A DNA stretch of 64,000 nt from the IMG/VR virus record IMGVR_UViG_3300027872_000001; one strand, given 5' to 3'. Under the pieces are notes generated by a model. It was given only the letters and a program-made list of their open reading frames with translations. It had not been told where the DNA came from and searched no databases. Both the position numbers and the translations under genes were made by a program. Positions 4,937 to 60,400 of the stretch are shown piece by piece (positions within the stretch are counted from its first letter, which is position 1; the number at the start of each line of letters is the position of its first letter). The DNA comes from a virus.

Positions 4937-5185
4937 TCAAGAAACGTACTTCAGTTCCTCGAACTGCTCGAAGATCGCCCTCGCTATCTTCTCAGGCAGC
5001 TTCGATCCGTTGTCCAAAGTGAATTTCTCATCATGCGAGATCGACTGGCCCTGCACCGCTGCACAGTAAGCCGACCACGCTCCCTCGATCCGCGTCCGCG
5101 CTACCACCATCACGTTCGGTCCCAAGCTGTACCTCGCTATCACTGGCTTAAATTCGGAGCCTGTAACTTCACTCGTTTCAACCAT
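4937..5185 (-). CDS. hypothetical protein
   Basis: ORF track, 82 aa. SD GAAAGGAGTGAAAGA precedes the ATG. Confidence 0.6.
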   Translation of the reverse strand: MVETSEVTGSEFKPVIARYSLGPNVMVVARTRIEGAWSAYCAAVQGQSISHDEKFTLDNGSKLPEKIARAIFEQFEELKYVS

Positions 5186-5215
5186 TCTTTCACTCCTTTC
5201 AGTTCCTCTCTCGTG

Positions 5216-5277
5216 CTAACATTTCCCCGGAAGCCTACTGCCTAACATTCCCCGCATGACAAACAACTAACATTCCC
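5216..5277 (-). promoter_or_regulatory. tandem array of 3 motif copies at the head of the leftward unit
   Basis: ctaacatttccc (5216, variant), ctaacattccc (5242) and ctaacattccc (5267), spaced 25-26 nt. No convincing gene lies upstream on this strand. Confidence 0.7.
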
Positions 5278-5607
5278 TTGATTAAATAACCGCCCTGGCC
5301 GATCCTTTCGGAACACCCCATTGTCAAAGACCAAGGAGCGATCCACGACCAGGGCGAAAAAGAGATGTTCTTATGACTCGCGCAGTTTCCCTTTCAGGCT
5401 CGGAGTCAAGCACACACCCCAGGAAGCGCAGAAAGAGGATAACACGTCCAGGTGTGTATGTGTAGGTCAAAGCGGAGAGAAAAAAAATAAAATTACTGAT
5501 ACGCGGTTACAGGGTAAGCATAGAGCATGGAGTTAGGGACTCCTGCTCCGCTGGAGGATTCCGAGGATTCGGACCCCTTCCTTACTCCCTTCCTTCCTTC
5601 TTTCTTC

Positions 5608-17554: not shown

Positions 17555-17734
17555 ATGAAACAGCCAATCAAGATCACGGTCGAGAAATCGGTACTGATTG
17601 CAGCGAGACAGAAGGCCATGGGGAAGGAGACTGTAATCAGCAACATCATTGAGGGGTTCTTGTCCCTGTGGATTGCGGGGAAGCTCGCGGATCCGGAGGA
17701 GTTGATGAGGGAAGTGGAGGAGGCCCAGGTATGA
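17555..17734 (+). CDS. ribbon-helix-helix-like small protein (tentative)
   Basis: ORF 17537..17734 trimmed to the ATG at 17555. MKQPIKITVEKSVLIAARQKA is RHH-like. ATGA overlap with the recombinase gene. Confidence 0.5.
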   Translation: MKQPIKITVEKSVLIAARQKAMGKETVISNIIEGFLSLWIAGKLADPEELMREVEEAQV

Positions 17735-18315
17735 AACGCGCTGCGATTTACGCACGGATCTCAACGGTGCGCCAAGACGAAGGCATGCAGTTGGAGGACT
17801 TGCGGGAGATGGCGAAACGGCGCAAGTGGGAGGTCGTCGAGGAGTACGTTGACCGAGGGGTGAGCGGAACCAAGGAGTCCCGAGAGGCTCTGGATCGAAT
17901 GATGGCAGACGCGAAGCGGGGGAAGTTCGACATTGTCATGGTGTGGAAGTTTGACCGCTTTGCGCGAAGCCTACACCATCTGGTTTCTGCCTTGAGGGAG
18001 TTCAGCGAATTGGGGGTCCAGTTCGTTTCACACCAGGAAGCCGTGGATACGTCAACACCGATGGGCCGAGCTATGTTCGGGTTAATAGGCATCATGGCCG
18101 AATTTGAGCGCGAGCTTATTAACGAACGGGTATTGGCTGGACTGGACAGAGCCAGAAGGAACGGGACTCAACTTGGTCGCAGGGAGACACAGTTCGACGA
18201 GGCTTGGGCTCTTGTGCTGCGCCACGAAGGGAAATCCTGGAGGAAGATCGCTGAACTGGTAGGGGTCTCAAAGTCTGTGCTGCACCGAAGGATGAAAGAG
18301 AAAGGAGTGATATGA
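17731..18315 (+). CDS. small serine recombinase (resolvase/invertase type)
   Basis: ORF 17668..18315 trimmed to the ATG at 17731. AAIYARISTVRQ carries the catalytic Ser, followed by DRFARS, GIMAEFERELINERV and a C-terminal HTH SWRKIAELVGVSKSVLHRR. Confidence 0.9.
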   Translation: MKRAAIYARISTVRQDEGMQLEDLREMAKRRKWEVVEEYVDRGVSGTKESREALDRMMADAKRGKFDIVMVWKFDRFARSLHHLVSALREFSELGVQFVSHQEAVDTSTPMGRAMFGLIGIMAEFERELINERVLAGLDRARRNGTQLGRRETQFDEAWALVLRHEGKSWRKIAELVGVSKSVLHRRMKEKGVI

Positions 18316-18725
18316 AACCAAAGAAAGAGGAATGGAGATATCTAGGAAGGCGTCTCGACCCGAAGAATAAAGTCTTCCATGTCTGGCACGACGGCGACGA
18401 AGAGCGTCACTTCAACAAGCTCCCGTCAAGCTCGCCCGGATCCTTTTACGAAGTCGAGGTCTCGCGGAAAGGAGATTCGGTAGTCGTTCATGGGAAACCC
18501 ACCTTCTTGATGATCGCAGAGAAGGACGACCCCATTAGCCTGAAGGCATGCGCGGATGATCGAGCCGTGTCGATAGAGGTCGAGTCGAAACGCGCTGAGA
18601 AGGCTGGAGCGTATAAGGAGCTAGAGGAAAACCTGGAGGCTTTGCGATCTCTATATTTTCGACAAACAGGAGGCCGACGTGCTGCGTTTCTGGCTCACGT
18701 CATCCAAAGATTAACGAAACGATAG
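18312..18725 (+). CDS. hypothetical protein
   Basis: ORF track, 137 aa. ATGA overlap. Confidence 0.6.
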   Translation: MKPKKEEWRYLGRRLDPKNKVFHVWHDGDEERHFNKLPSSSPGSFYEVEVSRKGDSVVVHGKPTFLMIAEKDDPISLKACADDRAVSIEVESKRAEKAGAYKELEENLEALRSLYFRQTGGRRAAFLAHVIQRLTKR

Positions 18726-18736
18726 GAGGGACGAAG

Positions 18737-19357
18737 ATGAAAGTATACCAAGGCCGAAGGGGAGAGAACGGAATTTTTGTTGTTGTTAAAAACGTGACGG
18801 AGAATCTACACGATAATTTACCCCACGTTGAGTGCCACTCACCGGATGGGTTCGAGTGGGGTTACGGGGGCAGCGGACCAGCGGATCTGGCTCTGGCGAT
18901 CCTGACCGACTGGTTTGAGGAAGATCCAGTCAAAGTACAGACGTATGCACGAACAGGCGAGGGTGATCCGTCGTCGTCGGTCCACTTCCACCAACAGTTC
19001 AAGGAAAAGCTCATCGTGGGGTTGCCAAGGAAAACCTGGACGATCACGGACGAGGAGGTCAAGAAGTGGTTCGGTAAGATCGGTGCGCTGTGCAAGGACT
19101 GTAAGCGGGGCATGTACGAGTCGGACGGGTGTCGGGAGTTTGTTATCCCGATGAAAGACGGGACCAATGCACCGCCGGTCAAGCACGGCGAGGAAACCAG
19201 AGCGGATTGGGGAAGTGACGGAGGTCGCTGCCACGACTGTGGCGCGAAGGTTGGGCAGTTTCATCACCCAGGCTGTGACGTGGAGGAATGCCCGAAGTGC
19301 GGGGGTCAGTTAATTGGCTGCAGCTGCGTGAAATACGCGGACGAGGAGGAAGAGTGA
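18737..19357 (+). CDS. hypothetical protein with C-terminal zinc ribbons
   Basis: 206 aa. HSPDGFEWGYGGSGPADLALAIL block, then CHDCG...CPKCGG...CSC. Confidence 0.65.
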   Translation: MKVYQGRRGENGIFVVVKNVTENLHDNLPHVECHSPDGFEWGYGGSGPADLALAILTDWFEEDPVKVQTYARTGEGDPSSSVHFHQQFKEKLIVGLPRKTWTITDEEVKKWFGKIGALCKDCKRGMYESDGCREFVIPMKDGTNAPPVKHGEETRADWGSDGGRCHDCGAKVGQFHHPGCDVEECPKCGGQLIGCSCVKYADEEEE

Positions 19358-19587
19358 TTGATTTTATAGTGGAAATCCACGATCAATATGGTGCTTCGCA
19401 TATTCTTGGTGTGATCGGTGTCGGGCTTTACGTCACCGCTTTAATACTGAGGCCTTTAGTGGTGCGCTACTGGCCCGACGCTAAAGAAAAGTTTGTTGAC
19501 CCCTGCCCGTTCGCGGACCCGCGAGGAAGTTCTGCCCAGGTCAGAGCTTGGGAGAAATTAGAAGAGAATGAAAAAACACGCCATTAA
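19354..19587 (+). CDS. small membrane protein
   Basis: GTG at 19354 (GTGA overlap, SD GAGGAGGAAGA). TM segment ILGVIGVGLYVTALIL. Confidence 0.45.
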   Translation: MIDFIVEIHDQYGASHILGVIGVGLYVTALILRPLVVRYWPDAKEKFVDPCPFADPRGSSAQVRAWEKLEENEKTRH

Positions 19588-19840
19588 GCCTGGATCGAAC
19601 GGGAAGGAAGGTTGGTGGTATGAGATCATGCCACTGACCTTCGACCGTGCCAGGATCGTCCTGACCGATGGGTACTCTGTTGACGATGGATGGTGATACG
19701 ACTCACCAGGGTTGGCAGTTGTCGGCCTTGCGACATTTGATCCTAAGACGATGGATGAACCGGAAGGATGGATGCGAAACCTGTCAACGGCTCGACGCCG
19801 GCCAGGGGGTGACCCCAAAAAGGAATATATTCGACGATGA
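19568..19840 (+). pseudogene. 90-codon reading frame interrupted by a single in-frame TGA (19694..19696)
   Basis: MKKHAIKPGSNGKEGWWYEIMPLTFDRARIVLTDGYSVDDGW-TGA-YDSPGLAVVGLATFDPKTMDEPEGWMRNLSTARRRPGGDPKKEYIRR. Both halves are stop-free in the same frame. Confidence 0.35.
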
Positions 19841-19906
19841 GGTTGGCCGTGACGCGGTTAACCGACAGTCCCGCAAGCTCTTACACCCCTCAAAGTAAAG
19901 AGTACC

Positions 19907-19917
19907 CTAACATTCCC
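19907..19917 (-). promoter_or_regulatory. GGGGARTGTTAG motif copy at the convergent junction
   Basis: Plus strand ctaacattccc. No leftward gene follows, so it faces the 3' end of the rightward block. Confidence 0.6.
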
Positions 19918-19966
19918 ATCCGTGACTGAACGGCTCAAAAAACCCTAGCAAGGCTCACTGAGAGTA

Positions 19967-20287
19967 TCACTCCTCCGGAGGATCTACCAGTTCTGCTTCC
20001 GGGGTTTCCTCCGGGGGGCCCGCCTGTCGTGGAGGGTTACCCAGAAGGACCGCTGCTTCCTGCATTAACTGGTCTTCCATAATCCGATGATCGGTTTTCA
20101 TGCGGGAGTACCGATCCAGCCAGCCTTTGAGTTTATTGCTGAACAGCCTCTCCTCGAGTAAGCTCCGATCAAAGCCCTCCTTTTGCTCAAGCATCATGCG
20201 GGAGAGCGAGTCAACGTCGTGCTGCTCGTGGAGCTGGTCCGAGCGATCGGACTTTACAAGGGACTGGTCGGGTTTTTCATCGACCAT
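19967..20287 (-). CDS. hypothetical coiled-coil protein
   Basis: ORF 19967..20371 (TTG start) trimmed to the ATG at 20287, after TGGAGGATACTC. Confidence 0.55.
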   Translation of the reverse strand: MVDEKPDQSLVKSDRSDQLHEQHDVDSLSRMMLEQKEGFDRSLLEERLFSNKLKGWLDRYSRMKTDHRIMEDQLMQEAAVLLGNPPRQAGPPEETPEAELVDPPEE

Positions 20288-20367
20288 GAGTATCCTCCAG
20301 AGAAATTTAGAGAGAAGGCGTTGAAACCACAGCGAGAATCTTACCCGCAGCCGGTGACGAATGGAAG

Positions 20368-20739
20368 TCAAAAGTTCACCTTTTTTTCGTGATTGTCATT
20401 GAAGTAGTTCTCCAACGGCCAAAGACGATAGTGGACGAGGCCGCGGCCGAGTTTGATCCGGATCCGGTCCTTCATGTGCCGATAGCCATCCCATGAGAGC
20501 TGTAGCGTCTGACGACAATCGGTTGGTTTTATCCTGTACTTGGCTCTCATTTTGAATAACTTGAGCTCTACGGGAGTGAGGACCCGGGAAGCGACGATAT
20601 CGAAGTCAACAATGAAGTCTTGGAGAAGTGGGTCATCGGCCAGTAAGCGAGGGTCTGCCTCACCCAAGACTTCATACTGAATGAAGCACTCAGTAAAGAT
20701 GTGAGAGGCGGCGGCGTTAGTAACTCTAAGAGGTTTCAA
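20368..20739 (-). CDS. sigma-70 region-4-like HTH protein (tentative)
   Basis: LTPVELKLFKMRAKYRIKPTDCRQTLQLSWDGYRHMKDRIRIKL follows the region 4.2 pattern L-s/t-p-x-E-x-x-h-F...h-S-x-x-x-h-x-x-x-h-x-R-h-x-x-K-L. Confidence 0.4.
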   Translation of the reverse strand: MKPLRVTNAAASHIFTECFIQYEVLGEADPRLLADDPLLQDFIVDFDIVASRVLTPVELKLFKMRAKYRIKPTDCRQTLQLSWDGYRHMKDRIRIKLGRGLVHYRLWPLENYFNDNHEKKVNF

Positions 20740-20960
20740 TCAATAGATTCCAGAAGGTCGGCTAGTTCATCTTCAAGAGGCACAGCCTCTTCGAAGGGTT
20801 GATCGGCCTGGTCCTGTACTGATTGGTCCTCGTGTGCTGCCAGCGGCAGCGGAGATAAGTCTGGCGGTTCTTCATCGAAGAGTGGCGCCGACTCGGGGTG
20901 AGTGGAATTACTACTGAGTTTAGTGAAGAATTTACTAAATCCATCCTTCCGCTCATTCAT
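20736..20960 (-). CDS. hypothetical acidic protein
   Basis: ORF 20736..21044 trimmed to the ATG at 20960. The upstream part of the ORF is made of GGTGAAAGG repeats. Confidence 0.4.
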   Translation of the reverse strand: MNERKDGFSKFFTKLSSNSTHPESAPLFDEEPPDLSPLPLAAHEDQSVQDQADQPFEEAVPLEDELADLLESID

Positions 20961-21013
20961 GGTTTTATGCAAGAACTGGAAGGCTGGTGCACAACATGTG
21001 TGCAGCTGGATAA

Positions 21014-21110
21014 GTGGTGAAAGGTCCCTGGAGCCAGAAGACATTCTTTTTCAGTGACTTCAGAGGGAAGTGGTGAAAGGTGGTGAAAGGTCCCTGGACA
21101 CTTTTCACCA
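21014..21110. repeat. TGGTGAAAGG iteron set A (3 direct + 1 inverted) including the 19-nt repeat GTGGTGAAAGGTCCCTGGA x2
   Basis: 19-mer at 21014..21032 and 21080..21098. Tandem tggtgaaagg at 21071 and 21081. Inverted cttttcacca at 21101. Confidence 0.85.
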
Positions 21111-21247
21111 GAGTTAAGATCTTTTCTATCAAGAGGATATCCTGTGTAAATGTATTGGGTGCAAGGAAAGGGGGTCATAACTCTTTCTATAAATCTCTAA
21201 AAGGGTTTCCGGGTTTCCTATACTAAAGTCTTGGAAGAGGGGGGGGT

Positions 21248-21320
21248 ACCTTTCACCATCCTGTAAGTCCTTTCTTGTCAGGCTCTAATTTGGTGAAAGG
21301 TGGTGAAAGGTGGTGAAAGG
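21248..21320. repeat. TGGTGAAAGG iteron set B (1 inverted + 3 perfect tandem copies)
   Basis: acctttcaccat at 21248..21259. tggtgaaagg x3 at 21291..21320 (10-bp period). Confidence 0.9.
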
Positions 21321-21550
21321 TGTTTTAGTCAGCTAAAACAAAACAAGGGGGTTTTCGGGGTCAGTCAAATACTTTGCTGATTTACTACGCACCCTATTCA
21401 CCAAACCGGCTCCCGAAATGGTGCAAGGGTGCATGCTATTTGACCATCTTTTTTATTTGACCCGGAAACTACCCACCTAACCCACACTCTCTCTATCCTC
21501 CCGATCTCGTATTTATACACTTATCTCTGCATAAATCTTTGCTGATTTCG

Positions 21551-21728
21551 CTAACATTCCCGAGGAGATCCAGTACCTAACACTCTCCCTCTGTTGTGTG
21601 AAAGATCCCACTAACATTCCCTGTACTGAAGCCCCTATCTAACACTCCCAGGGAACACCGTTCTAACATTCCCCATCCCTCCATCCCTCATCAATCTGGC
21701 TCATAATAGGGACGCTGCTAACACTCCC
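21551..21728 (-). promoter_or_regulatory. array of 6 motif copies
   Basis: ctaaca[ct]tccc at 21551, 21611, 21639, 21663 and 21718, plus the variant ctaacactctccc at 21577. The 21718 copy supplies the stop of 21718..21930. Confidence 0.7.
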
Positions 21729-21930
21729 CTGGTACCGACTCTTTCCCACCGTCGCAGCAGGACTCGAAGTAGCCGCATTTGCGACAGAGCTGCTTGTCAC
21801 GGACGTGTACGGTCTTCGCTCCGCAGAGCGGGCAGCAGTAGTACGCTTTAAGGCTCATTCCCTCGGGCCAGGCCAGAGGCTCCGGTCCCAGGACCCAATC
21901 GTTGTCGAGCGGTCTATCTCCGTCAGTCAC
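21718..21930 (-). CDS. small zinc-ribbon protein
   Basis: ORF 21718..22032 trimmed to the GTG at 21930, just before the stop of the upstream gene. CCPLCG...CRKCG. Ends GEC*. Confidence 0.45.
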   Translation of the reverse strand: MTDGDRPLDNDWVLGPEPLAWPEGMSLKAYYCCPLCGAKTVHVRDKQLCRKCGYFESCCDGGKESVPGEC

Positions 21931-22195
21931 TCTCTCTCTCTCCCCTTTGCAGGTGTTCGTAGATATACATTCTGAGTCGGAGCCGTGATTCGTCCTTGGC
22001 GTGACCCAGGACACTACTCTCGTTCTCCTCATCCCCGACGTAACAACGAGCCTGAATGTAGAGCTTCCTATCTTCGTGGAAGCCCACCCAGGACCCTTCC
22101 TTCAGCGGCCAGGACGAACATAGTTTCCAACCCGTCCACTCGACCTTCCAACCTTCCTCCAGGTGAGCTGTTGCCTTCAATGCTCGTTCACTCAT
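21923..22195 (-). CDS. hypothetical protein
   Basis: ORF track, 90 aa. The ATG lies exactly 12 nt downstream of the motif at 22208, with no SD. Confidence 0.55.
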   Translation of the reverse strand: MSERALKATAHLEEGWKVEWTGWKLCSSWPLKEGSWVGFHEDRKLYIQARCYVGDEENESSVLGHAKDESRLRLRMYIYEHLQRGERESD

Positions 22196-22207
22196 GACGT
22201 TGTGCAG

Positions 22208-22218
22208 CTAACATTCCC
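22208..22218 (-). promoter_or_regulatory. GGGGARTGTTAG motif copy
   Basis: Plus strand ctaacattccc, 12 nt upstream of the ATG at 22195. Confidence 0.7.
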
Positions 22219-22219
22219 T

Positions 22220-22462
22220 TCAATACGTTGGGGGCCATGAATCACCGTGGCCATCATCCCAAGGCTGAGGGTCCTTCATGTTCGATTGCGTGGGTGCCCT
22301 CTTGTGACTGTGCCGTTTCTCCCAATCCTTCTTCATATCCTTGAGGAAGTCCCACCACCAGATGTTCAGCTGGTGATGCTGCGCACCATACAGCAAGCTG
22401 AGTAGGAGAAGCCAGAGGACCAGTAGCCCGATGGCGATCCACTGGAGGGTTTCGTTGTCCAT
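22220..22462 (-). CDS. small membrane protein
   Basis: 80 aa. TM segment WIAIGLLVLWLLLLSLLYGA. Confidence 0.6.
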   Translation of the reverse strand: MDNETLQWIAIGLLVLWLLLLSLLYGAQHHQLNIWWWDFLKDMKKDWEKRHSHKRAPTQSNMKDPQPWDDGHGDSWPPTY

Positions 22463-22672
22463 CTACCCCAACACTCCCTCTTTGGTGTCGATAATGACGG
22501 GCGAGTGCCACAGTGGATGCTCTTTGACGATTCTCATGGGGGTCCCCCCGCTGCGCAGCGAAGACCATCCGACGACAAAATCCTTACCTTCACCGTCGAT
22601 GGCTCTGATCATGTAGCGCATTTCGTCCCGGTAGAGCAGTTTTTTGAACCATTGAGTCCACTTGTTATCCAT
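22463..22672 (-). CDS. hypothetical protein
   Basis: ORF 22463..22699 trimmed to the ATG at 22672 (MDNKW...), after AGAGGG. An alternative GTG at 22699 lies 12 nt after the motif at 22712. Confidence 0.5.
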   Translation of the reverse strand: MDNKWTQWFKKLLYRDEMRYMIRAIDGEGKDFVVGWSSLRSGGTPMRIVKEHPLWHSPVIIDTKEGVLG

Positions 22673-22892
22673 CCCTCTGCGGTCCTTTTCCTTCCCCACA
22701 CTGACGCTTTGCTAACACTCCCTCGTCCGGATCGACGCCCATTGCCCTCATCTCTGCGCGGATGGGCCGTAGATCAATCGTTCTTCGCCATTTTCGGCAC
22801 TTGCAGCAGAACTCCTCGTAGCCTTCCCTGGATGCGTGGACCTGGGTGATCTGGTGATTGCTGTTCTGTGGGCAGACTCCTAAGCTCATCAT
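22665..22892 (-). CDS. small Cys-rich protein
   Basis: ORF track, 75 aa. The ATGATG start lies 4 nt after the motif at 22897. Confidence 0.5.
   Translation of the reverse strand: MMSLGVCPQNSNHQITQVHASREGYEEFCCKCRKWRRTIDLRPIRAEMRAMGVDPDEGVLAKRQCGEGKGPQRDG
22712..22722 (-). promoter_or_regulatory. GGGGARTGTTAG motif copy
   Basis: Plus strand ctaacactccc. Lies inside the 3' part of ORF 22665..22892. Confidence 0.6.
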
Positions 22893-22896
22893 CTAA

Positions 22897-22907
22897 CTAA
22901 CACTCCC
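22897..22907 (-). promoter_or_regulatory. GGGGARTGTTAG motif copy
   Basis: Plus strand ctaacactccc. Its TAG is the stop of 22897..23352 (REC*). Confidence 0.65.
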
Positions 22908-23352
22908 TGACCGGCCTCGTCTTGGCGATAATCTCGTAGGTCACCTGGTCGATATCTGAAAGGTCCTCGCGGTAGGACCAGGCATCGGACTGGACGCTTA
23001 CCCCTATTCCGGATTTCTCTCTGTTCCTGAGTACGACATTCCAGACGGGATCGGGTGTGTCGACATCTAACATTCCCACGAGCTTCTCGGTAGTCAATCC
23101 CGCGTCCTCTGCTGCTGCTCTGGCAAGAGCCTTTTTCACTAGCCTTCGCTCGTTTCTTTCAGCTTCGTCCCACTCACACTTGTTGCATGGCCACACGGCC
23201 TCGTCCGCGATCTTCTCCAGGATCAGTTGAGGAGCCGCTGGCTTCCTTCTGCGCTTGTATTCAGTGATGTGGTCGTCACACTCAGCGAAGGGTTGGCCGT
23301 GCTCATTCTTGTCGAGGTTGAAGAAGCGGTAGAGCCTGACGTTCTTACTCAT
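22897..23352 (-). CDS. hypothetical protein
   Basis: ORF track, 151 aa. Contains an internal exact motif copy at 23067. Confidence 0.65.
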   Translation of the reverse strand: MSKNVRLYRFFNLDKNEHGQPFAECDDHITEYKRRRKPAAPQLILEKIADEAVWPCNKCEWDEAERNERRLVKKALARAAAEDAGLTTEKLVGMLDVDTPDPVWNVVLRNREKSGIGVSVQSDAWSYREDLSDIDQVTYEIIAKTRPVREC

Positions 23353-25325: not shown

Positions 25326-25391
25326 CTAACATTCCCTCTGGCGGCGATCACGAGCTAACATTCCCGCAAAGAGCTCCCCACTAACACTCCC
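25326..25391 (-). promoter_or_regulatory. tandem array of 3 motif copies
   Basis: Exact copies at 25326, 25355 and 25381, spaced 29 and 26 nt. The 25381 copy gives the GEC* stop. 24 nt to the ATG at 25301. Confidence 0.7.
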
Positions 25392-26088: not shown

Positions 26089-26176
26089 CTAACACTCCCA
26101 ACCGGGCATGATGCCCTAACACTCCCCGTAGCTTCAATCTAACATTCCCCGATTCAAAATCAGTTCTAACCTTCCC
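26089..26176 (-). promoter_or_regulatory. tandem array of 4 motif copies
   Basis: Copies at 26089, 26116 and 26139 (exact) and 26166 (ctaaccttccc, stop of 26166..26465), spaced 27, 23 and 27 nt. Confidence 0.7.
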
Positions 26177-27137: not shown

Positions 27138-27186
27138 GGACTATCCTCCTCCTATATGTTTCACATGAAACACTCCACCACCTGGG

Positions 27187-30007: not shown

Positions 30008-30069
30008 CTAACACTCCCACCTACAAGTTATATCTAACAGTCCACCAACACGTTATATCTAACATTCCT
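30008..30069 (-). promoter_or_regulatory. tandem array of 3 motif copies
   Basis: ctaacactccc (30008), ctaacagtcca (30034) and ctaacattcct (30059, KEC* stop). The latter two share the extended GTTATATCTAACA. Confidence 0.6.
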
Positions 30070-40700: not shown

Positions 40701-41079
40701 GGATATCCTCTCTGCTGTAAGCGACCAGGACGTGCGTTCCGACCTCCTTCACTCCACTGGCCCGCGCTTTATCAAGCAAAGGTATCCTCTGTTGATCCAG
40801 TTTCATCTTTGCCTCTCTCTCATCGTTAGCCACGACTCCCACAAGAAACTCTCTGCGGTCGTTGCGGTCGTCTTCCCGGCCTGTCCACCAATGCCAATAG
40901 ATGGGTTGGCTGTAACCCCTGAGTCGTTCAATTACCTCGTCCTTGGTAGCCATGCGCTTCTTGTATGTCTTAGCTCCATGGTCCCGACCAAAACCCCATC
41001 CGATAGCACCACCCATGATGGCGACGACCAGCAAAACAAACGAGGCCTGTAACCAAGTCCACATTGATATCTCACCCAT
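40684..41079 (-). CDS. membrane-anchored hypothetical protein
   Basis: 131 aa. TM segment WLQASFVLLVVAIMGGAIGWGF. The start codon abuts the stop of the TnpB-like gene. Confidence 0.55.
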   Translation of the reverse strand: MGEISMWTWLQASFVLLVVAIMGGAIGWGFGRDHGAKTYKKRMATKDEVIERLRGYSQPIYWHWWTGREDDRNDRREFLVGVVANDEREAKMKLDQQRIPLLDKARASGVKEVGTHVLVAYSREDIHVQTI

Positions 41080-42389
41080 TATTGCTCTCCCCTCTGGCCT
41101 ACGGCCAACAGTCTATTCTTTAACCGTGACTCGATCATGTTCAATTCCTCCACCTTTCCCTTCAGGATCTTTCCCGGCTTGCGGGTGATCTTCCTTCGGC
41201 TCTTAGGCAACAGGTTCTTGAGCGCGTTCCACTCAGCCCAATGGGACCGGCCACACTTCTCGCACAGGACGGAATGAGAAGCGTTGACCACCTGGGTCTG
41301 GCCTCCGCAGCGGCAACAATTACGGGTGACTCCAACCTTGTAGTCATTGACCACCTTGAAGGGCAATCCTGCCAGGGCCATCTTGTATTGAAGCTCGTCC
41401 AGCAGCTTCGCAAAGCAGTAGTTGGCCATGCGATAGTTCTTGGCCTTCTCCGGAGGACTCTTGCCCTTGGTGAACTTGTCGCGCACACGATTGTGACGAC
41501 CTACGGTGATGGCAGGATTGGTTCCCTCAACAGCCACGAAGATCCAATCACAGACCTGGGCCGAGACTGTATGCGTGATCCAGGTAGCAAAACGGTTCTC
41601 TCTCTGCCCAATCTGCTTGATCTTCTGGAGCTTCTTCTTCTCTCCCAGGGCCTTGCGGAGATTCCTCCATTTCCTTTTCAAATTCCAGTAGCTCTGGCCT
41701 CGGACGGTGAGGTAGCGGTAGGAGTTGTCGGCGTACACCACCAGGACAGAGACCAGCTTCCGCTGGCCTGTGTGGATGGTCACCAGGGATTTCCCTACGC
41801 CCTTCTCCCGTTTCACAATCGGCAACCGGCAAGCGATCGCTGCATACCATTTGCTTTTTCTCCGGAAGATCTCAACCTCTCCGTGTTTGACCGCCTTCTC
41901 GAGTACGACCTTCTGTCTTTCACCGCAGCGGAACTCACAGTCAATGACCAGATCCTTGCGGAGTTGGATCCGCAGCCGGTACTCTCGTTTCATTTCATCA
42001 TCCACAGGCAGCACCGAGACAGCCCGATCACGCGCACAGACGCGAGGTCTCCCGTCAGTCACGGAGGGCAGACCCCTCTCTTTGCTTTTCCATAGGCCAA
42101 CATAGGATCTCCAGTTAGCGTTGATTTCCTGTGCAGCGGAGTCTTTCAGGTGGGAAGGGTAATCCTTCGGCATGGCGTGACGGGCCACGGAAGCGGTAGC
42201 AGACTCATCCTCGGCTTCTTTGGCAGCTAGGACAGCGCGGGTTCCTCGAACGAGACAATCTTTGTAGAGTTCACACCAGTAAAGAAGTTCAGCTTCGATC
42301 TCCGGAGTGACGAGGAGTTTGACTTTGGCGGCAACGGTCTGCTCGGTTTGGTCCTGTTTCACTACGGTTGTCCCTTCTAACAATCCCAC
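41079..42389 (-). CDS. tnpB: TnpB / Cas12-family (IS605 OrfB-like) protein with apparently substituted RuvC catalytic residues
   Basis: 436 aa. OrfB-like N-terminus VKLLVTPEIEAELLYWCELY and zinc ribbon CCRCGG...CEKCGR. The RuvC-I position reads VTIHTG (usually GIDxG), RuvC-II reads ITVGRH (usually hhhEDL), and RuvC-III reads AEWNALKNL (usually ADxNAAxNI). The GTG start lies 12 nt after a motif copy. Confidence 0.75.
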   Translation of the reverse strand: MGLLEGTTVVKQDQTEQTVAAKVKLLVTPEIEAELLYWCELYKDCLVRGTRAVLAAKEAEDESATASVARHAMPKDYPSHLKDSAAQEINANWRSYVGLWKSKERGLPSVTDGRPRVCARDRAVSVLPVDDEMKREYRLRIQLRKDLVIDCEFRCGERQKVVLEKAVKHGEVEIFRRKSKWYAAIACRLPIVKREKGVGKSLVTIHTGQRKLVSVLVVYADNSYRYLTVRGQSYWNLKRKWRNLRKALGEKKKLQKIKQIGQRENRFATWITHTVSAQVCDWIFVAVEGTNPAITVGRHNRVRDKFTKGKSPPEKAKNYRMANYCFAKLLDELQYKMALAGLPFKVVNDYKVGVTRNCCRCGGQTQVVNASHSVLCEKCGRSHWAEWNALKNLLPKSRRKITRKPGKILKGKVEELNMIESRLKNRLLAVGQRGEQ

Positions 42390-42412
42390 GATTAATGAGA
42401 CCTAACATTCCC
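42377..42412 (-). promoter_or_regulatory. two motif copies at the TnpB-like gene start
   Basis: ctaacattccc (42402, 12 nt upstream of the GTG at 42389) and ctaacaatccc (42377, codons 2-5). Confidence 0.65.
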
Positions 42413-42528: not shown

Positions 42529-42605
42529 TGGTAGCGGGGGAGGGATTCGAACCCCCGACCTCAAGGTTATGAGCCTTGCGAGCTACCGGACTGCTCTACC
42601 CCGCG
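42529..42605 (-). tRNA. tRNA-Met (anticodon CAT), initiator-like
   Basis: 77-nt cloverleaf on the minus strand: CGCGGGG-TA-GAGC-AGTCCGGTA-GCTC-G-CAAGG-CTCATAA-CCTTG-AGGTC-GGGGG-TTCGAAT-CCCTC-CCCCGCT-A-CCA. The C1xU72 mismatch and A11:U24 are initiator-like. CCA is encoded. Confidence 0.85.
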
Positions 42606-43037
42606 TTAATTAACCAAGGCATCCGATTGAATGAGTTTTCCCTGTTCGACCAAGTCAACGGCTTTTTCTAGCATCCACAATACACTCTGCCTATTGCCAG
42701 GGTCCAGATGTTTGACCTCGATGGTGACTCCTTGGCCTAATTCCTTACCTTCTGGGCCTGTCAGCTTCCAGGTCTGAATCTCCAAAGTGGGGTTTAGAAT
42801 GTTTCGGTCGATGTCACCAACACCGCCACAGTACGGACAGGGATCGAGGATCTTACCTTCCGACTTCAGTTGCCCTACTCCCCGGCAGAAGTTACAGACG
42901 ACTCTAGTACCACCTGTCTTGCGCTGCTCCTGCAGCAACGCTTCCCTCATGGCTTTAACAGTCTGCTGGAGGACCTCAACGGCTTCCATGAGGTCCTTGT
43001 TGGCCGAGAGCAGGATCTCGATTACTTTTCCTTCCAT
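42606..43037 (-). CDS. DnaJ-type zinc-finger (CxxCxGxG x2) protein
   Basis: CNFCRGVGQ...CPYCGGVGD. 143 aa. The stop codon is directly adjacent to the tRNA 5' end. Confidence 0.65.
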   Translation of the reverse strand: MEGKVIEILLSANKDLMEAVEVLQQTVKAMREALLQEQRKTGGTRVVCNFCRGVGQLKSEGKILDPCPYCGGVGDIDRNILNPTLEIQTWKLTGPEGKELGQGVTIEVKHLDPGNRQSVLWMLEKAVDLVEQGKLIQSDALVN

Positions 43038-44659
43038 TATGATACTAGCTTTTCAAGGTTGACGGGTTCGAGTTTCGTTTTCTTTTTCGTGGCCTTCTTC
43101 TTGGCCGTTTTCTTCTTGGCTTTGGCTTTCTCTTTCGCCTTGGCCTCTCGCTTCACATCTTTTTCAATCTGTGCCGAGTCGATATCGAACATAGTACACG
43201 CATCCTTGAAAGAATCGTGAAGTTTTCCTTGCCAATCTCTGTGTCCTTCACGGCTCACGGTCAACTCGACAACGATGCTTCGCACTTCAGAGCCTTTGGC
43301 CGTTTCCAGATAGTCGAGCAGAAACTTGCCCCATTTCATATTCCAGGCGTCCTTCGCCATGGTGTAGGGGATCTCTCGACGCTTGATGAGAGCCTGAACT
43401 GTGTCGCTGGTGTACCAATTATGGGTCAGTGATTTAGCAAGAAACAACCAGAATTTGTCGGTGACTTTCGTTGACTTGGCGTTGTCAGCGATCTGAGCTA
43501 GAGATTCCTTGAATACCTCGGACTGGAGCTTCCTTTTCGCTGTCTCTTTTTTCTGCTCGTCCTTCCATTTATTATCTCGATTCCCTGACTCTCGCGCCCA
43601 CTTGAACTTCTTTTTGAGGACCGCTTCGGCTTCCGTTTTCTTCACGGTAGGGATAAGCCCATCCTCGGTTTGAACCAACGTGATCTCAGGACAATCCTTA
43701 CCGAGCAACTCTTGATAGCTCCGGGTCTTGCCATCCTCGTAGCATTGTTTTTTGAGTTCAAGCAGGGAACTGTTGTGCGACAGCCGACCATAGGAGATAT
43801 GCTTCTCAGCTTCTTTCCCCGCCAGAACTTCCTTGCCTTGGGCTTTTGCTTTCTCTATGAGGATCGCTTGGTTGGTTTCCACTTTAGCGCGAAAACACTC
43901 CGGGTCAGTACACACATCTGCACTCGTATTCGGGTAGAGATCCTTCTGGTTCCCGGTGCGCTTGGGACAGGTCGTACAGGGTCCTGCCTTGGGTAGCAGC
44001 TTTTCATCCTTCGTGGAAAAACCACACCCCTTGAGTCGGATCATGTAGTTTTCCTCGATATGCTCCTTAGATGCACGGAAAGTCATTGCTCCGTCTTCGT
44101 TCCAGTTGTCCCCTTCAAGAATTTCTTCCAGAGCCTTGTCCTGTTGGGCTTTGCCGGGGATACGAGCGATCAGCAAACCTATGGAGGCAGAGATCTCCCC
44201 CTTGTCCAAAGCCTTCCGGCCTTTTACGCAGAGACTTACCAGCTTTAGCCGACCATAGATATAGGCACGGCTCTTGTTGATCTTCTCGGCCAAGTCCTCG
44301 GCCTTGTACCCGAACTTGTCGAGCATGTAGCGGTAGCCAAAGGCTTCTTCGATCTCTGTGAGGTCCTGACGTTGAAGGTTCTCGATCATCCCAAGCTCAA
44401 AGGCTTCTTCGTCCGTCAGTTTCTTGGTGATAGCTGGAATGGTTTTGAGTTTGGCCTTTTGACTGGCTCGGAACCGGCGTTCCCCGACGACCAGCTGGAA
44501 CTTATCGCCATCGGGACGAACCAAGATTGGTTGCAGCACCCCATGTGTCTTGATGTTTTCGGCCAGATCAGCCAGAGCTTCCGGGTCGAAATACTTGCGC
44601 GGGTTGGTTTTGGAGAGGGTGACGCTCTCCAATGGAAGATTGATTACAGTGTTTCCCAT
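43037..44659 (-). CDS. ParB/Srx N-terminal domain protein with long C-terminal extension and Lys-rich tail
   Basis: NPRKYFDPEALADLAENIKTHGVLQPILVR...VVGERRFRA is the ParB box (GERR). TIR is GAAAGGATAGGGAAATG. Confidence 0.8.
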   Translation of the reverse strand: MGNTVINLPLESVTLSKTNPRKYFDPEALADLAENIKTHGVLQPILVRPDGDKFQLVVGERRFRASQKAKLKTIPAITKKLTDEEAFELGMIENLQRQDLTEIEEAFGYRYMLDKFGYKAEDLAEKINKSRAYIYGRLKLVSLCVKGRKALDKGEISASIGLLIARIPGKAQQDKALEEILEGDNWNEDGAMTFRASKEHIEENYMIRLKGCGFSTKDEKLLPKAGPCTTCPKRTGNQKDLYPNTSADVCTDPECFRAKVETNQAILIEKAKAQGKEVLAGKEAEKHISYGRLSHNSSLLELKKQCYEDGKTRSYQELLGKDCPEITLVQTEDGLIPTVKKTEAEAVLKKKFKWARESGNRDNKWKDEQKKETAKRKLQSEVFKESLAQIADNAKSTKVTDKFWLFLAKSLTHNWYTSDTVQALIKRREIPYTMAKDAWNMKWGKFLLDYLETAKGSEVRSIVVELTVSREGHRDWQGKLHDSFKDACTMFDIDSAQIEKDVKREAKAKEKAKAKKKTAKKKATKKKTKLEPVNLEKLVS

Positions 44660-54441: not shown

Positions 54442-57400
54442 CTAGGGGGTTGGTGGTAGTTCGGTCGGGACTTCCGGTGTGACCGGAATATTTTCCGGAG
54501 TTACCGGAATTGGTTCCATCTGCATCCTCGCTCCGGAACGAGTGGCTTTGAATCTGGATTGATTTCTCTCCCAATACAGTTGGTTGAGTTGGGTGTTTAT
54601 CTCCTCCAGGTTTTTTACGCCTGGCATAGCTCTTGCAGCTTCGAGAAGACTTATTTTCATCCTTAAACTGTCCAGCCTTTGGGCAATGTTTTTTATGTCC
54701 ATTGAGGGGCCAGGCTGCTCTTGAATGACTTTCAATTTGGACCAAAAAGCCGCTGGATCTTCATCTACGAGTTGAGCTTCGATGGCAGCATCCGTCGCTG
54801 CTTCGTATTTGTCGCCCAATTCCATGTTCACTCGACCCGCTGCATACGCCAGCATCTCATCTGGGTTCGGCGCGATACCTTTTTTGTCCACAGCGTCCCG
54901 AGCAATGTGCCTCTTTGCGACATTGAAATCCGAGACTTTCTGTTTCTGTTTCACAGGATCCAAAGCTCGCTGCACATGGTTAATCATGATTATGGTGTCG
55001 TGGGCGTCCTCCAACACTTGTCTGTAGTGCCGCTGATTGGTTGTTTCCGACTCCCCTTTATTCTTTTGGCCGTTGAATCGCCGTTGTTCCCGCGACAAAT
55101 CCTCGTAGAAAGTGTCAACAGCCAAAGATCGTCTTCCCTCACGCCCACCTGGACGCACTAGCGAACTGAGTATGGGTACTCCTTCGAGCTCCTTAAGGGA
55201 AATCCTTCGACTTGGAACACCTAGACCTAGAGTGTCTAAAATGTCAGGACCAAGCCCTCCAAAGAAACCTCTAATCGCATGGTCTATCCTTCTCGGGGAA
55301 GCCTGATTGGGAAACATATCACCAAGCATTCCAGCGAGTTTTGAGGTATAAGGTCCACGTTGGTCGCCGGGGGGATCGTTCAACTCACCGATGGGAACGA
55401 TTGGGGAGTTTGTGAAAAACCGCTCGTTCGCAAATTGCTCCAGGACTACGTCCGGAATGACCGGGAGTGCCGCAGGATTTACTTGTTCCGACCATTGACC
55501 GAAGACTTCTATAATAGCTTCAGGATCTTGCCGATACATAGCGTCCCAGATTGCCTCCGGAACCGCAGTAAAGATAGTTCCCCATTCAAAGCCTCGTGGA
55601 ATTTGCCAGATGTGTTTGCCATCGTCGATGTTCCAGTAGGTGAATCGCTCCCAATAGGGCATGTCCGTGTACCACTCTTCGTCCTTGTTCAACCACCAAA
55701 GCGCAAGGGTGAGACTGGTCAAGCCCATCACTCCTCGAATGACCGTCCTTTTCGGCTTGCTCTTGAACGTCCTGAGTGTGAGGCGAGTACCTTGAATCTG
55801 TGCATTGAAGAACGGAACGGCCTGGTTGACTGCCTGGCCGACGCTTCCTCCTGCGGAGAAATCAACGGTGACCCGCTTTGTATCCAAGAGCAGCTGCAAG
55901 GATTGGGCGAAGGACATGGGTTGCCCTGGCTTCCAGCCCATTTCTTTTGCCCGAAGTTTCAGTTCGGCTGTTCTTGTGGCTGACTCTGGGATCTGCATGA
56001 TCTCTCGTAAGTGATCAATAGGGTTCGTGACGACCTTCATAACCCGTCCTCGGAATAATCTCTTAGCGGCTCTCCTGGTAAATCGAATGTCTATACCAAG
56101 AGGCTGAGAGACTTCCGCTCCAAGCCGACGCATCAGATCGTAATGTTCTGATTGTTTTCCATGCCTAATAATGTCCTGCATCTGGAAGGTCCAGGCAGCG
56201 GCCAGCTCTGCTGGATTGGCATTACTCGCTGTCTGCATGAAAAAGGTCTGAAGATCTCGGGCGGGATTCCGTACCCAGGCAAAGGAAGCCCGTAATCCAG
56301 TCGTTCCAAGACGGAACAATCTCGCCGGTTTACCGAGGACAATATCCCATCCTTTAGGAAGGCGGTAAACATCCAACCCCGACAAGGACGCGTACAGTTC
56401 CGGATCAATCTGAAACCATCTTACGACTCCGTTTTCCACAAGCGGAATGATCGGGTCCATCCCTTTCGGGTGTTGAGCGGGGATGAAAAAAGTCAGGATC
56501 GAATCCAGGGTTTCTTCGGGGGATTCTAGTTTCTGGAATCCCTCAGCCTTGAGCAGAACATCTTCTGCTGTTTCACCGATTTCGATTCCCTTTTGTTTCA
56601 GAACACCAAGAACCTGTGCCGTACTTATGGTGACTGGAACAACCCCACGATCGACTTCCTCGATCATATGGCCCATTCCTTCGATGTGTCTCAACTTCAG
56701 GATTTGATCAATGATAATTCGTTGATGGGTTTTAAGGATGATATTTGTAGCATTCTCTATCATCACTTCAAAGGGATCTCTGATTCTGCGCCCGGAACCT
56801 CTCATTCTGTTGGTGATGCTTCCGGTCGACCATCCCCCGCGAAGTCTCCTGACGTAGCCAGAGTCTATATCGTCCAACACGCGGGCCAAGGGGATGTAGT
56901 CTTGGCTTCCCTCTATGATTTTATCGAGGGCTTGCTGTGTGATTAAACCACCTTGAACAGCGTAATTGAGTACCCCCCGATTCCACTCATAGACCTTCTG
57001 GGCAGCTCTCTGAAATTCCGGAGTCTCAAAATGTTCTACAAGAAATTCAGCATCGTTTTTCGAGATTCCAGGGTTCTTATTCTCCTTCCATCTTTCTATG
57101 GCACGCCTACCCCAGAGATAAAGAGTAAATTCTTCTCTCTGATCTTTCACCAAGGCTCCAGCATCTTCCAGACTCGGCCCAACAGGAACGCCAGCGATAT
57201 TGATCATATGATCTTCAACCATGTAGGCCGCTCTTGCAGTATGGGTGTGGCGAAGGGCATGAAATGTCAACTCTGGATTTTCCTCAATCGCTATCCCTGA
57301 TCCTTTCAGGGTTGTAGCAATGCTGGTCAAATGCTCATATGCGGATCCGGCCTCGACCCATTTTTGATAGGAGAACAGATCCAGGATTGAAAGAAGTCTC

Positions 57401-60400
57401 TGCTTGACGGTCGGAGTGATAGCGGCCTTCATTGCTTTGCCCCGCTGCACAGCACCTTGAAGTCGCCATTTGGTAACGGCTGACTTGGCTTCGTTGAAGG
57501 CGTCCGCGATCTTTGGGTTGTCCTTCAGGAACTCCTTAACAAACCATCTGTGGGTCTGAGGGGCTTTTCGAGCTGCTTCAATATCGGTTGTCAGTTCGAG
57601 TCGGATGAACTCAGCAAATCCTTCGCGCTTGTATCCACCCTCCGGGTGCTTGCTTTTGTATAAGTCCTTCCCCATTTTCACGAGTTCAGCCCGCACTACC
57701 GGAGGACGAGTTTCCCAATGGCTTTTTGATCCTCTGAGGTATCCGAATACTGCTTTATCAAGTGCATGGCCCATCTCATGGGCAGCAGTTGGAAGGTTGT
57801 TCGCAACTCTCAATCGAATGACTTCTGCTAAAACCTTGAAGATACCTCTGGCCTTCTTCCTAAACCTGTGTAAGCGGAACGGAACTGTTCGATCGGCCGC
57901 GGTGAGCACATTCTCGAAAGACTTAATGATCTCAGGTGCACCCATTGGCTTACCCTTATCCGTCAGTTGGTCTAGCATTTCCATTTCCATATCCCGTTCT
58001 GCATTGAATCCCAGGATTGGATCTTCCACATTCTGCTGAAAATCCGCTGGAAGCTGGTCTAAACCAAACCCTGTTGCAGACTCCGTTTTGAACGGGAACA
58101 ACACTTGTTCTGGTGATGCTGGAAGCACAGAAGCAATTCCTGGAGCACCACCACCCTCTGGAGAAGGAGGTAATGTTCCAGGTTCCGCTGTCTCTCCGGG
58201 CATGACATCGGGATCACCGTATGTAGCGGCCTCCGGACGTACATCTGGCTGCATGCCAGTCCTGTCTTTAACCGCTTTGTGGCGTTCGAGGAGTCGCCCG
58301 AGAGCGTTTGGACCTTCGACTGAATCAAGCGGAATGAAAAATCTCCGCTTGTAATCAATCTTTTCTGATTTCAAACCAAAGGTTTCCAGTTCCTCCTTGT
58401 TGTAATTTCTACCAGCATCCAGCTCCATGCGATCTTCTCTTTTAACCTTGGTCATGAGAAGTCGCCAACCGTTGTCCAGCTCGATCATCGACTTGTTGTT
58501 CAAGACCAAGTCGTAGATTTCCTGTGCTGTGGCATTACCTAACGGAGTACCGATGCCAAGTCTCTGCTTAAGCCCTCCTATTTCTCCGGGTTGGACCGCA
58601 ATACCAATGTGAGAGCTACCGTCGTCCAGAGTTGCTCGAACCACACCCAAGCGTCTGATCTGCTCGTCTCCCGTGACCTTGTCATAGATCGGGAAAATGG
58701 GTGCTGTTAGAAGGTGAACCGGTTTCTTTACGCTATCGGGGATCTCGGAGTATTCTTTGTTCCATTGTGTTTCAGCGGCTGCTTCCTCCAGTTGGGTGAA
58801 GTTCTGATCTTCCTCAAGTTGGTAAGCCTCGACCTCATGTGCATTTCCTGTAGGACTTGAGAGGAGGACCTGGGCCTGATAACCCTCTTTCCCGGCCTGA
58901 AGTGCTTGATGGCTCCATTTTGATTTCTCGGTTCTGTGAGCAACGTAGATCTTCTCGCTCCGCTTATTGACGTAATAGCCCATCGGCCTAGTCGTCATAG
59001 GACTGTCGCCAAAAGCCATCTTCGGTACGGGAAAGTCCCCTTCAAGCTCGATGAGAACAGTCTCAGCCTTGGATTCCGGGTGGGTATAAACAACTTCTGG
59101 CTTGCTTTTCAGCACAAGGCTAGTTGGACGACGGTTGCGCTCGTCGGTGACTGGTGTCACTCCAACGTCAAAGGTTCCATCTTGTTTCGCTATTTGAGAT
59201 ATGCGCTGATACTCGGCATAGAAATGTTCAAAGACACTGTTTTGAACATCAACGTGAAGGGCCATGATCCGATTGAGAAAGCGATTCACATCCGTTAAGT
59301 GCGCCCTTCTGAGCTTGCCATCGGCCGACGCAATTCCCATCCGCTGTAGGAGCTGCATCCCTGTCTTCACACCGTCAATGGCGTCCCTCTGTATCGCTCT
59401 GTAGGTCTCAGAAAGGGCCGCTTCTCCGTACTGGTCGGTAATGTCTTCGACTTCAAAGAGGCTTCCACCGAGCGTTTCCCGACCGCCCTTAGTTAAAGCA
59501 CCAAGGCTTGCCAGTCGTTTAGCTACGGTATTGATCAGGCGTTCTTGGCCGCGTAAGTTGGTCCTAAGTAACTTGATGATCGGAGCCTCAGCCTGAAAAG
59601 AACGATGCACTCGGCCAAAGGCTTGCATCTGTTGATCCGCGCTCCAACTGAGCTGCATCGCGTAGAAAACACGACGTTGTTGGTTCTTTGCGGTTTTGTC
59701 AGAGTGTAGAGAAATGCCCGTCGAAGCTGCGCCGGTGATGATGGCAATTCTCACGTCCTGATTTTGAAATCTGGCAGTCTCGTGTAAGTTGAGATCTTTG
59801 AAAGAGACACCCTTTATGCTTCGACGTTCGGGTTTACCGTTTACTATTCTGCGGGGACGACCGGAGATCTCTGCAATGTTGCTCACGCCGAAGTGATCGA
59901 CGATCTCATCCATAGGATTGACAGGAAGTTGGATATCAGAGACCTTGTCAATTAAGTCTTGTTGCTTCGCCAAGTTTTCTCTGTTGATGAGAGGTTCACC
60001 GTCCTGAAGAACCGGAACTGGACTCGTTCTCCCGGTCGCTGGATCGTACTTATCCTCGTATTGTTCGAGCGGGAATTGGCTCTCGATCAGTTGCACGATC
60101 ATTTCTCTGGGCGTGAGATCCAGATTCTCTGCATCTTCCCCTGCTGCTGTGGCTTTCGTGATCGCTCGATCCGTTTGAGCTTGATTGGTGTTATAGAGAC
60201 TGATCACCGTAGATCTTCCAGCTGCCAGATCCTTATCCGCAGCAGCAAGTAAATCAGGCAACTGATAACTCATCATGAGCTGGAGGAAAAACTGCTGCTG
60301 CCTGGCGTAGAACTGACTAAATGCAGTCCCGCCTTTTTTCTGACCGGCGTTTTCCTGTGCTTCCTCAAACGCTGTTAGGAGATCGTCCCACAGATCAGCC

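Follow-up and report, generated by a model that had tools for sequence, protein, structure and literature searches.

What use does a phage have for some 600 bases that hold no gene and are crowded with copies of a single short word? This question is raised by an uncultured phage (IMG/VR record IMGVR_UViG_3300027872_000001), of which a stretch of 64,000 nucleotides, referred to as the window in the following, was analyzed. On the minus strand, the 3′ limit of the gene-free stretch is the ATG at position 20960. A first-pass annotation, made from the sequence of the window, had proposed that the region is an iteron-type replication origin or a ParR-type centromere, or alternatively an autoregulated control region or the source of a non-coding RNA. 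The evidence points to the last of these options: the region is linked to the operon downstream of it, a promoter-like array lies upstream on the same strand, and its repeats can pair with one another. Based on comparative sequence analysis, we propose with moderate confidence that the region is a structured leader or non-coding RNA, which would act as an attenuator or switch for a regulator operon.

The word in question is TGGTGAAAGG, which occurs in seven exact copies and one copy with a single mismatch, all of them within 21015–21320. Six exact copies lie on the plus strand (at 21015, 21071, 21081, 21291, 21301 and 21311), while the minus strand carries another exact copy (21249–21258) and the one with the mismatch (21101–21110). 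No further exact copy is found elsewhere in the window, and by our own arithmetic about 0.1 exact copies would be expected by chance in 128 kb, i.e. on both strands. The first-pass annotation had listed these eight copies, the last three direct ones perfect and head-to-tail, and this is borne out, the trio spanning 21291–21320. Of the other repeats that it described, the following are likewise present: a 19-nt repeat at 21014 and 21080, a hairpin at 21322–21339 and direct copies of CTTTGCTGATTT at 21372 and 21537.

Relatives of the region were gathered via the 123-aa protein encoded downstream of it, which led to 15 metagenomic relatives with 58–96% identity, and a DNA-pattern search recovered further viral contigs. 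Homologous regions are found in about 20 metagenomic phage contigs, which represent seven or eight lineages. In each of these relatives, the same operon follows the element directly; its three genes encode an acidic protein, the 123-aa protein and one of about 110–135 aa. The gene upstream of the element, on the other hand, is of one of two unrelated kinds; the element goes with the operon. From lineage to lineage, the element is 56–67% identical; the 10-mer remains exact, with four to nine copies per lineage in both orientations, and the core, measured from the TGYATAWWTA box at its 5′ end to the last repeat, spans 437–470 nt in every lineage.

The element is preceded by an array of a second motif, GGGARTGTTAG, of which the window holds 40 copies (3402–47875), all on the minus strand, versus 1.75 expected. 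Elsewhere in the window, this motif is found 12–47 nt upstream of start codons and in tandem arrays, often 24–28 nt apart; the arrays upstream of the element are kept in all relatives. As the surrounding genes are on the minus strand, too, the six copies next to the element point into the non-coding stretch. All six had been annotated as copies of the motif, which holds exactly for five of them; the sixth has one mismatch. GGGARTGTTAG probably serves the phage as a promoter element of its own for early or middle genes, with the 123-aa protein as a candidate reader. A structure model of this protein, built with an alignment, has a pLDDT of 85, and its best fold matches in the PDB are all sigma region 4 domains, which bind the −35 element (probability 0.9–0.98, E-values near 1). 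Scans of the window region for sigma-70 promoters and for terminators returned nothing relevant.

On the minus strand, the word reads either as D, CCTTTCACCA (also given as CCUUUCACCA), or as the inverted copy I, TGGTGAAAGG; as a 10–11-nt word, D is ACCUUUCACCA and its complement I is UGGUGAAAGGU. In every lineage, the copies follow the order D(a)–I(a/a′)–D(b)–I(b)–D(c)–I(c)–D(d). Independent sites would show this strict alternation by chance in about 1/64 of cases (our own arithmetic). From 5′ to 3′, the common plan starts with the promoter-like array, the 5′ box, a Shine-Dalgarno-like GGAGG with a short open reading frame (ORF), and stem-loop 1, which are followed by a conserved TTTGAC block, stem-loop 2 and D(b) in one to three copies. 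After about 32 nt come I(b) and a run of 6–10 C, and after a further 90 nt or so D(c), about 45 nt, I(c), 9–11 nt and finally D(d) in one or two copies. The positions of these features in the window are given in the table.

Features of the region and of the adjoining operon in the window
Feature	Position	Strand	Remarks
Third operon gene, 134-aa protein	19967–20371	−	Synteny in all relatives
Second operon gene, 123-aa sigma-region-4-like protein	20368–20739	−	Structure model and fold match
First operon gene, acidic 74-aa protein	20736–20960	−	Without Shine-Dalgarno sequence
Group-A extension	20988–21024	−	D(e) at 21015–21024 and palindrome TGCACAACATGTGTGCA at 20988–21004; missing from groups B–E, present in the partial relative L050
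Terminal hairpin	21071–21110	−	I(c) TGGTGAAAAG, 10-nt loop, D(d) as two copies of CCTTTCACCA
D(c)	21157–21166	−	Degenerate copy CCTTGCACCC; putative pivot with the alternative partners I(a′) (long range) and I(c)
I(b)	21239–21258	−	TGGTGAAAGG(T), then eight C; hairpin partner of D(b)
D(b)	21291–21320	−	Three head-to-tail copies of CCTTTCACCA; one to three in relatives, triple tandem in group A only
Stem-loop 2	21322–21339	−	GUUUUAG-CUGA-CUAAAAC, directly 5′ of the D(b) triplet
Stem-loop 1	21387–21436	−	Base helix AUGCACCC / GGGUGCGU; D(a) CCTTGCACCA; I(a)/I(a′) TGGTGAATAGGGTGCG; variable apex
Short GTG ORF, 32 codons	21386–21484	−	Behind GGGAGG; enters stem-loop 1; stop codon inside I(a)
5′ box TGTATAAATA (TGYATAWWTA)	21510–21519	−	Start of cross-lineage conservation; unique in the window; aligned in 17/17 sequences
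Six-copy GGGARTGTTAG array	21551–21728	−	Five exact copies and one with one mismatch; faces into the non-coding region
Further GGGARTGTTAG arrays	5216–5277, 25326–25391, 26089–26176, 30008–30069, 42377–42412	−	Motif scan

Within this plan, the individual parts vary to different degrees. The 5′ box is possibly a host-type −10 region: in the relative L051, it lies within a sigma-70-like match (TTTATA-18-TATAAT), and the window itself has no such match. The CACCC/GGGUG base helix of stem-loop 1 is kept in 15–17 of 17 sequences, with an apex of 13 to about 50 nt. In stem-loop 2, 84% of cells are paired across lineages, and within group A, to which the window belongs, the loop varies (CUGA, CUCG, UUCG or CGAA) on a constant stem. 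The homopolymer right after I(b) (21239–21246; G8 on the plus, C8 on the minus strand) is found in every lineage, with a length of 6–10. Group A also has about 110 extra nucleotides downstream of the terminal hairpin, which include D(e) and the palindrome.

That the copies pair with one another is suggested by coordinated changes between them. In the relative L036, ACCTCCGGC has taken the place of ACCTTTCAC in D(c), and GCCGGAGGT that of GTGAAAGGT in I(c); each arm carries five new bases, and the nine-base complementarity between D(c) and I(c) is preserved. A second case concerns two bases 260 nt apart, namely alignment column 166, which directly follows GGGUG in I(a′), and column 424 at the center of D(c). 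They form C–G in eight sequences and A–U in five: C/G is found in group A, L043 and group E, A/T in L024, the rest of group D and L034. Since L041 and L043 are 91% identical and yet differ at both columns, the double change arose at least three times independently. With the I(a′):D(c) helix included, the covariation score is 0.096, versus 0.065 ± 0.008 for shuffled alignments, and none of 500 shuffles reaches it, with the tool's warning that related sequences inflate such numbers. Furthermore, columns 117 and 166 in stem-loop 1 form U–A in seven sequences and G–C in five, and the 11-bp complementarity of D(b) and I(b) is invariant in 17/17 sequences. The coordinated changes, together with the base helix of stem-loop 1, which is kept while the apex varies in length, support the notion that the complementarity of the copies is under selection. 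With I(a′) and I(c), D(c) has two supported partners, which is the signature of a switch.

The terminal hairpin suggests what might be switched. I(c):D(d) has a predicted energy of −10.6 to −21 kcal/mol in all lineages but L036, and in 11 of the 19 sequences other than L036, where it has −11 to −21 kcal/mol, it is directly followed by four or five U. The lineages with this U-tract are group D except L036, group E, L034, L038, L051 and L058, and their operon starts 25–40 nt further on. A hairpin with an immediate U-tract in most lineages looks like an intrinsic terminator; a simple terminator scanner passed over these hairpins, whose loops exceed 8 nt. The pairing of D(c) with I(c) would compete with I(c):D(d) in the manner of an antiterminator, and it is backed by the swap in L036; D(c) also covaries with I(a′). 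In L036 itself, the D(c):I(c) duplex reaches −21 kcal/mol, the I(c):D(d) hairpin has collapsed to −5.0 kcal/mol and the U-tract is retained. According to the energy calculations, the fold with all local hairpins is at or near the minimum, and the D(c):I(c) alternative is competitive in group D and L034 only.

From these observations, a mechanism can be outlined. A leader or non-coding RNA, templated by roughly 21520–20961, would originate at the tandem GGGARTGTTAG motifs; a host-type promoter at the TGYATAWWTA box may contribute to its transcription. By default, it would fold into the three local hairpins D(a):I(a′), D(b):I(b) and I(c):D(d), the last of which, 25–110 nt before the start codon of the operon, would act as a terminator. 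Owing to the alternation of D and I, however, each I can pair with the D on either flank: if D(c) paired with I(c), the terminal hairpin would be prevented; alternatively, I(a′) could capture D(c) at long range. The output of this system would be termination versus read-through into the operon. The balance might be shifted by the translation of the short leader ORF over stem-loop 1 or by a factor that binds to unpaired extra D copies.

A bolder version of this idea, which we put forward tentatively and consider rather doubtful, is that the element belongs to a novel class of large phage regulatory RNAs (~450 nt), in which one identical pairing word, strictly alternating in orientation, works as a relay. 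The first hairpin is overlapped by the leader ORF, and its state would then be passed on via alternative D:I pairings to the terminator 350 nt downstream. Such a relay could time the expression of the sigma-like regulator, while surplus unpaired copies might dock a trans-acting protein or mediate RNA–RNA self-assembly.

Would a protein-coding gene explain the conservation instead? A conserved frame across the region was sought in the relatives and not found, and the neighboring proteins have no match in Pfam or PHROG that would extend a gene into it. The first-pass annotation had dismissed an ORF of 73 codons at 20957–21178 as a product of the repeats, and rightly so: the downstream gene begins at ATG 20960, and our alignment A3 has gaps of 1–2 nt between lineages throughout this stretch. 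The 32-codon GTG ORF, which it had also pointed out, does exist, but its reading frame is not kept across lineages. Its start region, (A/G)TGGTGTGGG, is conserved, and downstream of it L024 and L038 use one frame, group D uses another, L039 and L044 have early stops, and in group E the ORF is absent or broken. The conserved blocks show no synonymous variation. Because the lineages read these blocks in different frames or run into early stops, the short ORF probably does not encode a conserved protein.

Several observations weigh against a pairing RNA. In the window's own group A, as well as in groups B and C, a second D copy replaces the U-tract, and D(c) is degenerate in group A. At columns 166 and 424, L038 is the single clear exception to the covariation. 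The 10-mer itself never covaries; it is identical across copies and lineages, as would be expected of a site for a sequence-specific protein. The constraint of having multiple pairing partners can explain this invariance, at the price of an extra assumption. A model with local hairpins only yields no significant covariation, and the long-range register is 10–25 kcal/mol worse than the local one in energy calculations. G–U and A–C mismatches were counted in the proposed helices without revealing a strand bias, so that the data speak for pairing but not for a particular RNA strand. Which strand is involved, and that the molecule is RNA and not single-stranded DNA, we infer from the context, i.e. 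from the orientation of the 40 GGGARTGTTAG motifs, the link to the operon and the U-tract. In addition, the Rfam 15 covariance models gave no match at E ≤ 1 in the window at 19500–23000, nor any in four relatives. Lastly, the spacings between copies (10, 19–21 and 42–44 bp) are near multiples of the helical turn, which suits a protein on duplex DNA.

Some of these points are naturally accommodated if a single sequence-specific protein binds the copies as duplex DNA, so that they form an autoregulatory roadblock or operator array between the promoters and the operon. The candidate binder would be the 123-aa sigma-region-4-like protein or another phage or host factor. We regard this explanation as possible, if somewhat improbable; the sigma-region-4-like neighbor and the helical-turn spacings make it a serious rival, and the main one. 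The adjacent gene encodes a helix-turn-helix fold like that of sigma region 4, and the 10-mer is exact in both orientations in every lineage while the spacers diverge. The cluster is unique in the window, its copy number differs between lineages, and a T-to-G variant, CCTTGCACC, recurs at several copies, as expected of a tolerated position in a binding site. However, an array of DNA sites leaves unexplained why complementarity survived the exchange of five bases in L036 and why columns 166 and 424 changed together three times independently, as well as the strict alternation of D and I and the U-tract. The sites are found 120–480 nt downstream of the promoter motifs, not over them, and a sigma region 4 domain would more naturally recognize the 40-copy GGGARTGTTAG. 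Furthermore, the inverted arrangements differ in their spacers (9 nt vs 32 nt), so that one dimer geometry cannot fit both.

The same repeats had given rise to the proposal of an iteron-type replication origin, in which a phage initiator would recognize the short repeats as iterons in either orientation. They are indeed clustered, occur in both orientations and are helically spaced, as in plasmid and phage origins. For instance, the origin and the cis-replicating region (crr) of satellite phage P4 contain the octamer TGTTCACC, and the TTCACC core of the 10-mer may resemble the type I iteron of P4. The region is, however, AT-rich to a mild degree only, with a GC content of 0.39–0.50 compared to about 0.53 for the whole window; its lowest values in 80-bp windows are 0.375–0.39, none being below 37%. 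Genes for an initiator or other replication proteins do not adjoin the region. The only helicase, of the superfamily 2 type, is encoded 16 kb away, and the 880-aa protein next to it has no recognizable domain (no match in the PDB or NCBIfam); the neighbors of the element, a Zn-ribbon-like 104-aa protein and the 74-, 123- and 134-aa proteins, match no replication family in Pfam or PHROG. There is no DnaA box (TTWTNCACA) in or near the region, the three of the window being located at 33, 55 and 56 kb. The cumulative GC skew, which had been suggested as a check, has its maximum rather than its minimum at 20–22 kb, and this is a weak test, as the skew follows gene orientation. Finally, the element goes with a single operon and a single strand, and an origin does not account for the paired compensatory changes. 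For want of an initiator, a DnaA box and a strongly AT-rich stretch, and given the skew maximum, we do not favor an origin and consider it unlikely.

Even less probable is the second original proposal, a partition centromere, whether as a site for ParB loading or as a parC array of the ParR type with 10–11-bp repeats. Tandem repeats with a 10-bp period resemble parC iterons, a ParB-like gene is present at 43037–44659, and the TTTCAC core of the repeats resembles a parS half-site. This ParB-like protein, however, has the canonical ParB_N and HTH_ParB architecture, and a near-perfect parS, TGTTTCACATGAAACA (one mismatch), lies at 27157–27172 and is conserved in the relative L004 at 12388. With the canonical parS at this other location, a partition site in the repeats is unlikely. 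None of the repeats is a parS palindrome, they lie 22 kb from the ParB gene, and the triple tandem is restricted to group A. No ParA, ParM or ParR genes are found near the repeats, and the downstream operon shows no match to an actin-like ATPase or ParR. The parS site itself lies 16 kb from the ParB gene, and there is no obvious ParA.

The repeats might also be thought to serve a small serine recombinase of the resolvase/invertase family (17668–18315), as res subsites or inversion sites. Its gene lies 2.7 kb away and is conserved in the relatives, and res sites consist of inverted short repeats with variable spacers. Yet the recombinase is not adjacent, since five genes and a strand change intervene, and the 20 homologous regions are all collinear, no stretch between copies being inverted or missing; to our knowledge, the 10-mer is also unlike the known hix, gix and res sequences. 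We consider this the least probable of the explanations, and a very remote one. Together with a DUF6166 protein, the recombinase forms a pair of conserved convergent neighbors of the operon in most relatives (17668–19357, plus strand).

Returning to the proposed attenuator or switch, three more specific mechanisms were considered and discarded. The motif ends in CACCA, which raised the idea of tRNA 3′-end mimicry in a T-box-like mechanism; neither phage tRNA matches. A C-rich composition for Rho loading (rut) is not supported, as the spacers outside the motifs have a C/G ratio near 1. Likewise, GGA loops of the CsrA type were rejected, since the GGGA before D(d) is missing in L058.

Among the systems that have been described, the immunity leader of phage P4 may be the nearest functional analogue; the c4 antisense RNA of phages P1 and P7 is related to it. 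Our element would share with them an untranslated location after an early promoter and short repeats that terminate transcription prematurely, ahead of a regulatory or replication operon, by pairing with their complements; in P4, these are the CI RNA and seqA, seqB and seqC. In P4, a processed CI RNA pairs with the complementary seqA and seqC of the same untranslated transcript and thereby causes premature termination (PMC4825925). Our element differs in that it shows no sequence or Rfam similarity to the P4 leader, has seven alternating elements of one 10–11-mer rather than three sites, belongs to an unrelated phage lineage and precedes the operon of a sigma-region-4-like regulator; a processed, trans-acting small RNA is not in evidence here.

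Classical attenuators, such as the trp leader and the pyr/PyrR and TRAP-type systems, offer a second comparison. As in these, a pivot has mutually exclusive pairings, in this case D(c) with either I(a′) or I(c); most lineages have a terminal hairpin with a U-tract; and a short leader ORF extends over the first hairpin. As in TRAP, there are tandem short repeats that could bind a protein. Unlike these attenuators, the element is about 450 nt long, all its helices are made of one sequence, the U-tract is missing from the window's lineage and the frame of the leader ORF is not conserved. Iteron-type origins of plasmids and phages, including the P4 origin and its crr octamers, likewise have genome-unique clusters of short repeats in both orientations with roughly helical spacing. 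Our element differs from them in that it has no adjacent initiator, no DnaA box and no strongly AT-rich unwinding element, in its GC-skew polarity, which is wrong for an origin, and in the paired compensatory changes and the strict alternation of its repeats. Finally, GOLLD and ROOL RNAs are also phage-borne, conserved, non-coding and several hundred nucleotides long; our element, by contrast, matches no Rfam model, is built from one repeated pairing word and appears to be the leader of an operon, not a neighbor of tRNA genes.

Searches beyond the first relatives had little yield. blastn of the region against 50,697 phage records gave no match, and no cultured phage resembles it. A metagenome scan for the tandem 10-mer returned unrelated simple repeats only, a scan of viral contigs for I(b) with the C-run returned the known loci and three chance matches only, and a profile search with the neighboring protein found no relatives past the first 15 clusters. 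Two distant DUF6166 relatives (L060, L061) are without a comparable element, and nothing relevant to the motifs was found in the literature. Three chromosomal matches in Vibrionaceae (L046, ~1990–2280; L047, ~5080–5330; and L048), from Enterovibrio norvegicus and Grimontia indica, were rejected as relatives; they are unrelated repeat arrays beside an integrase. Within 250 bp, (C)TCTTTCACC / GGTGAAWG occurs there about 12 times, in either orientation, and the arrays adjoin a tyrosine recombinase, an AbiE toxin–antitoxin pair and a type I restriction–modification methylase; they may represent the protein-binding array of a genomic island.

A few observations concern the neighboring genes. Several other genes in the window have a GGAGG-like sequence upstream, unlike the very acidic 74-aa gene at the start of the operon, whose ATG in groups A and C follows TTGCATAAA(A)CC. 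In the relative L024, a protein matching Pfam PF25188 (Tad6) is encoded at 1–125, a few kb upstream of the element. Further away in the window, a 436-aa protein (41079–42389, minus strand), whose gene adjoins tRNA-Met (42529–42605), has a Cas12f1-like TNB domain and a transposase match in PHROG, and is thus TnpB-like. A giant protein of 3171 aa (54442–63957, minus strand) has a methyltransferase-like segment at residues ~510–690 and weakly resembles virion RNA polymerase and other giant proteins of phages; it might be a polyvalent protein that is injected.

If the element does act as an RNA, a sigma-like regulator would be under the control of a long leader whose helices all share one word, unlike the attenuators described so far. 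It would then be a new large phage non-coding RNA and offer a compact, testable model of how degenerate pairing can carry a decision along an RNA. If the copies are instead DNA sites, they would form an ordinary operator array. In either case, the annotation as an origin or centromere, which repeat-spotting alone had suggested, is corrected, and the element and the 40-copy GGGARTGTTAG would together define the early transcription program of this phage group.

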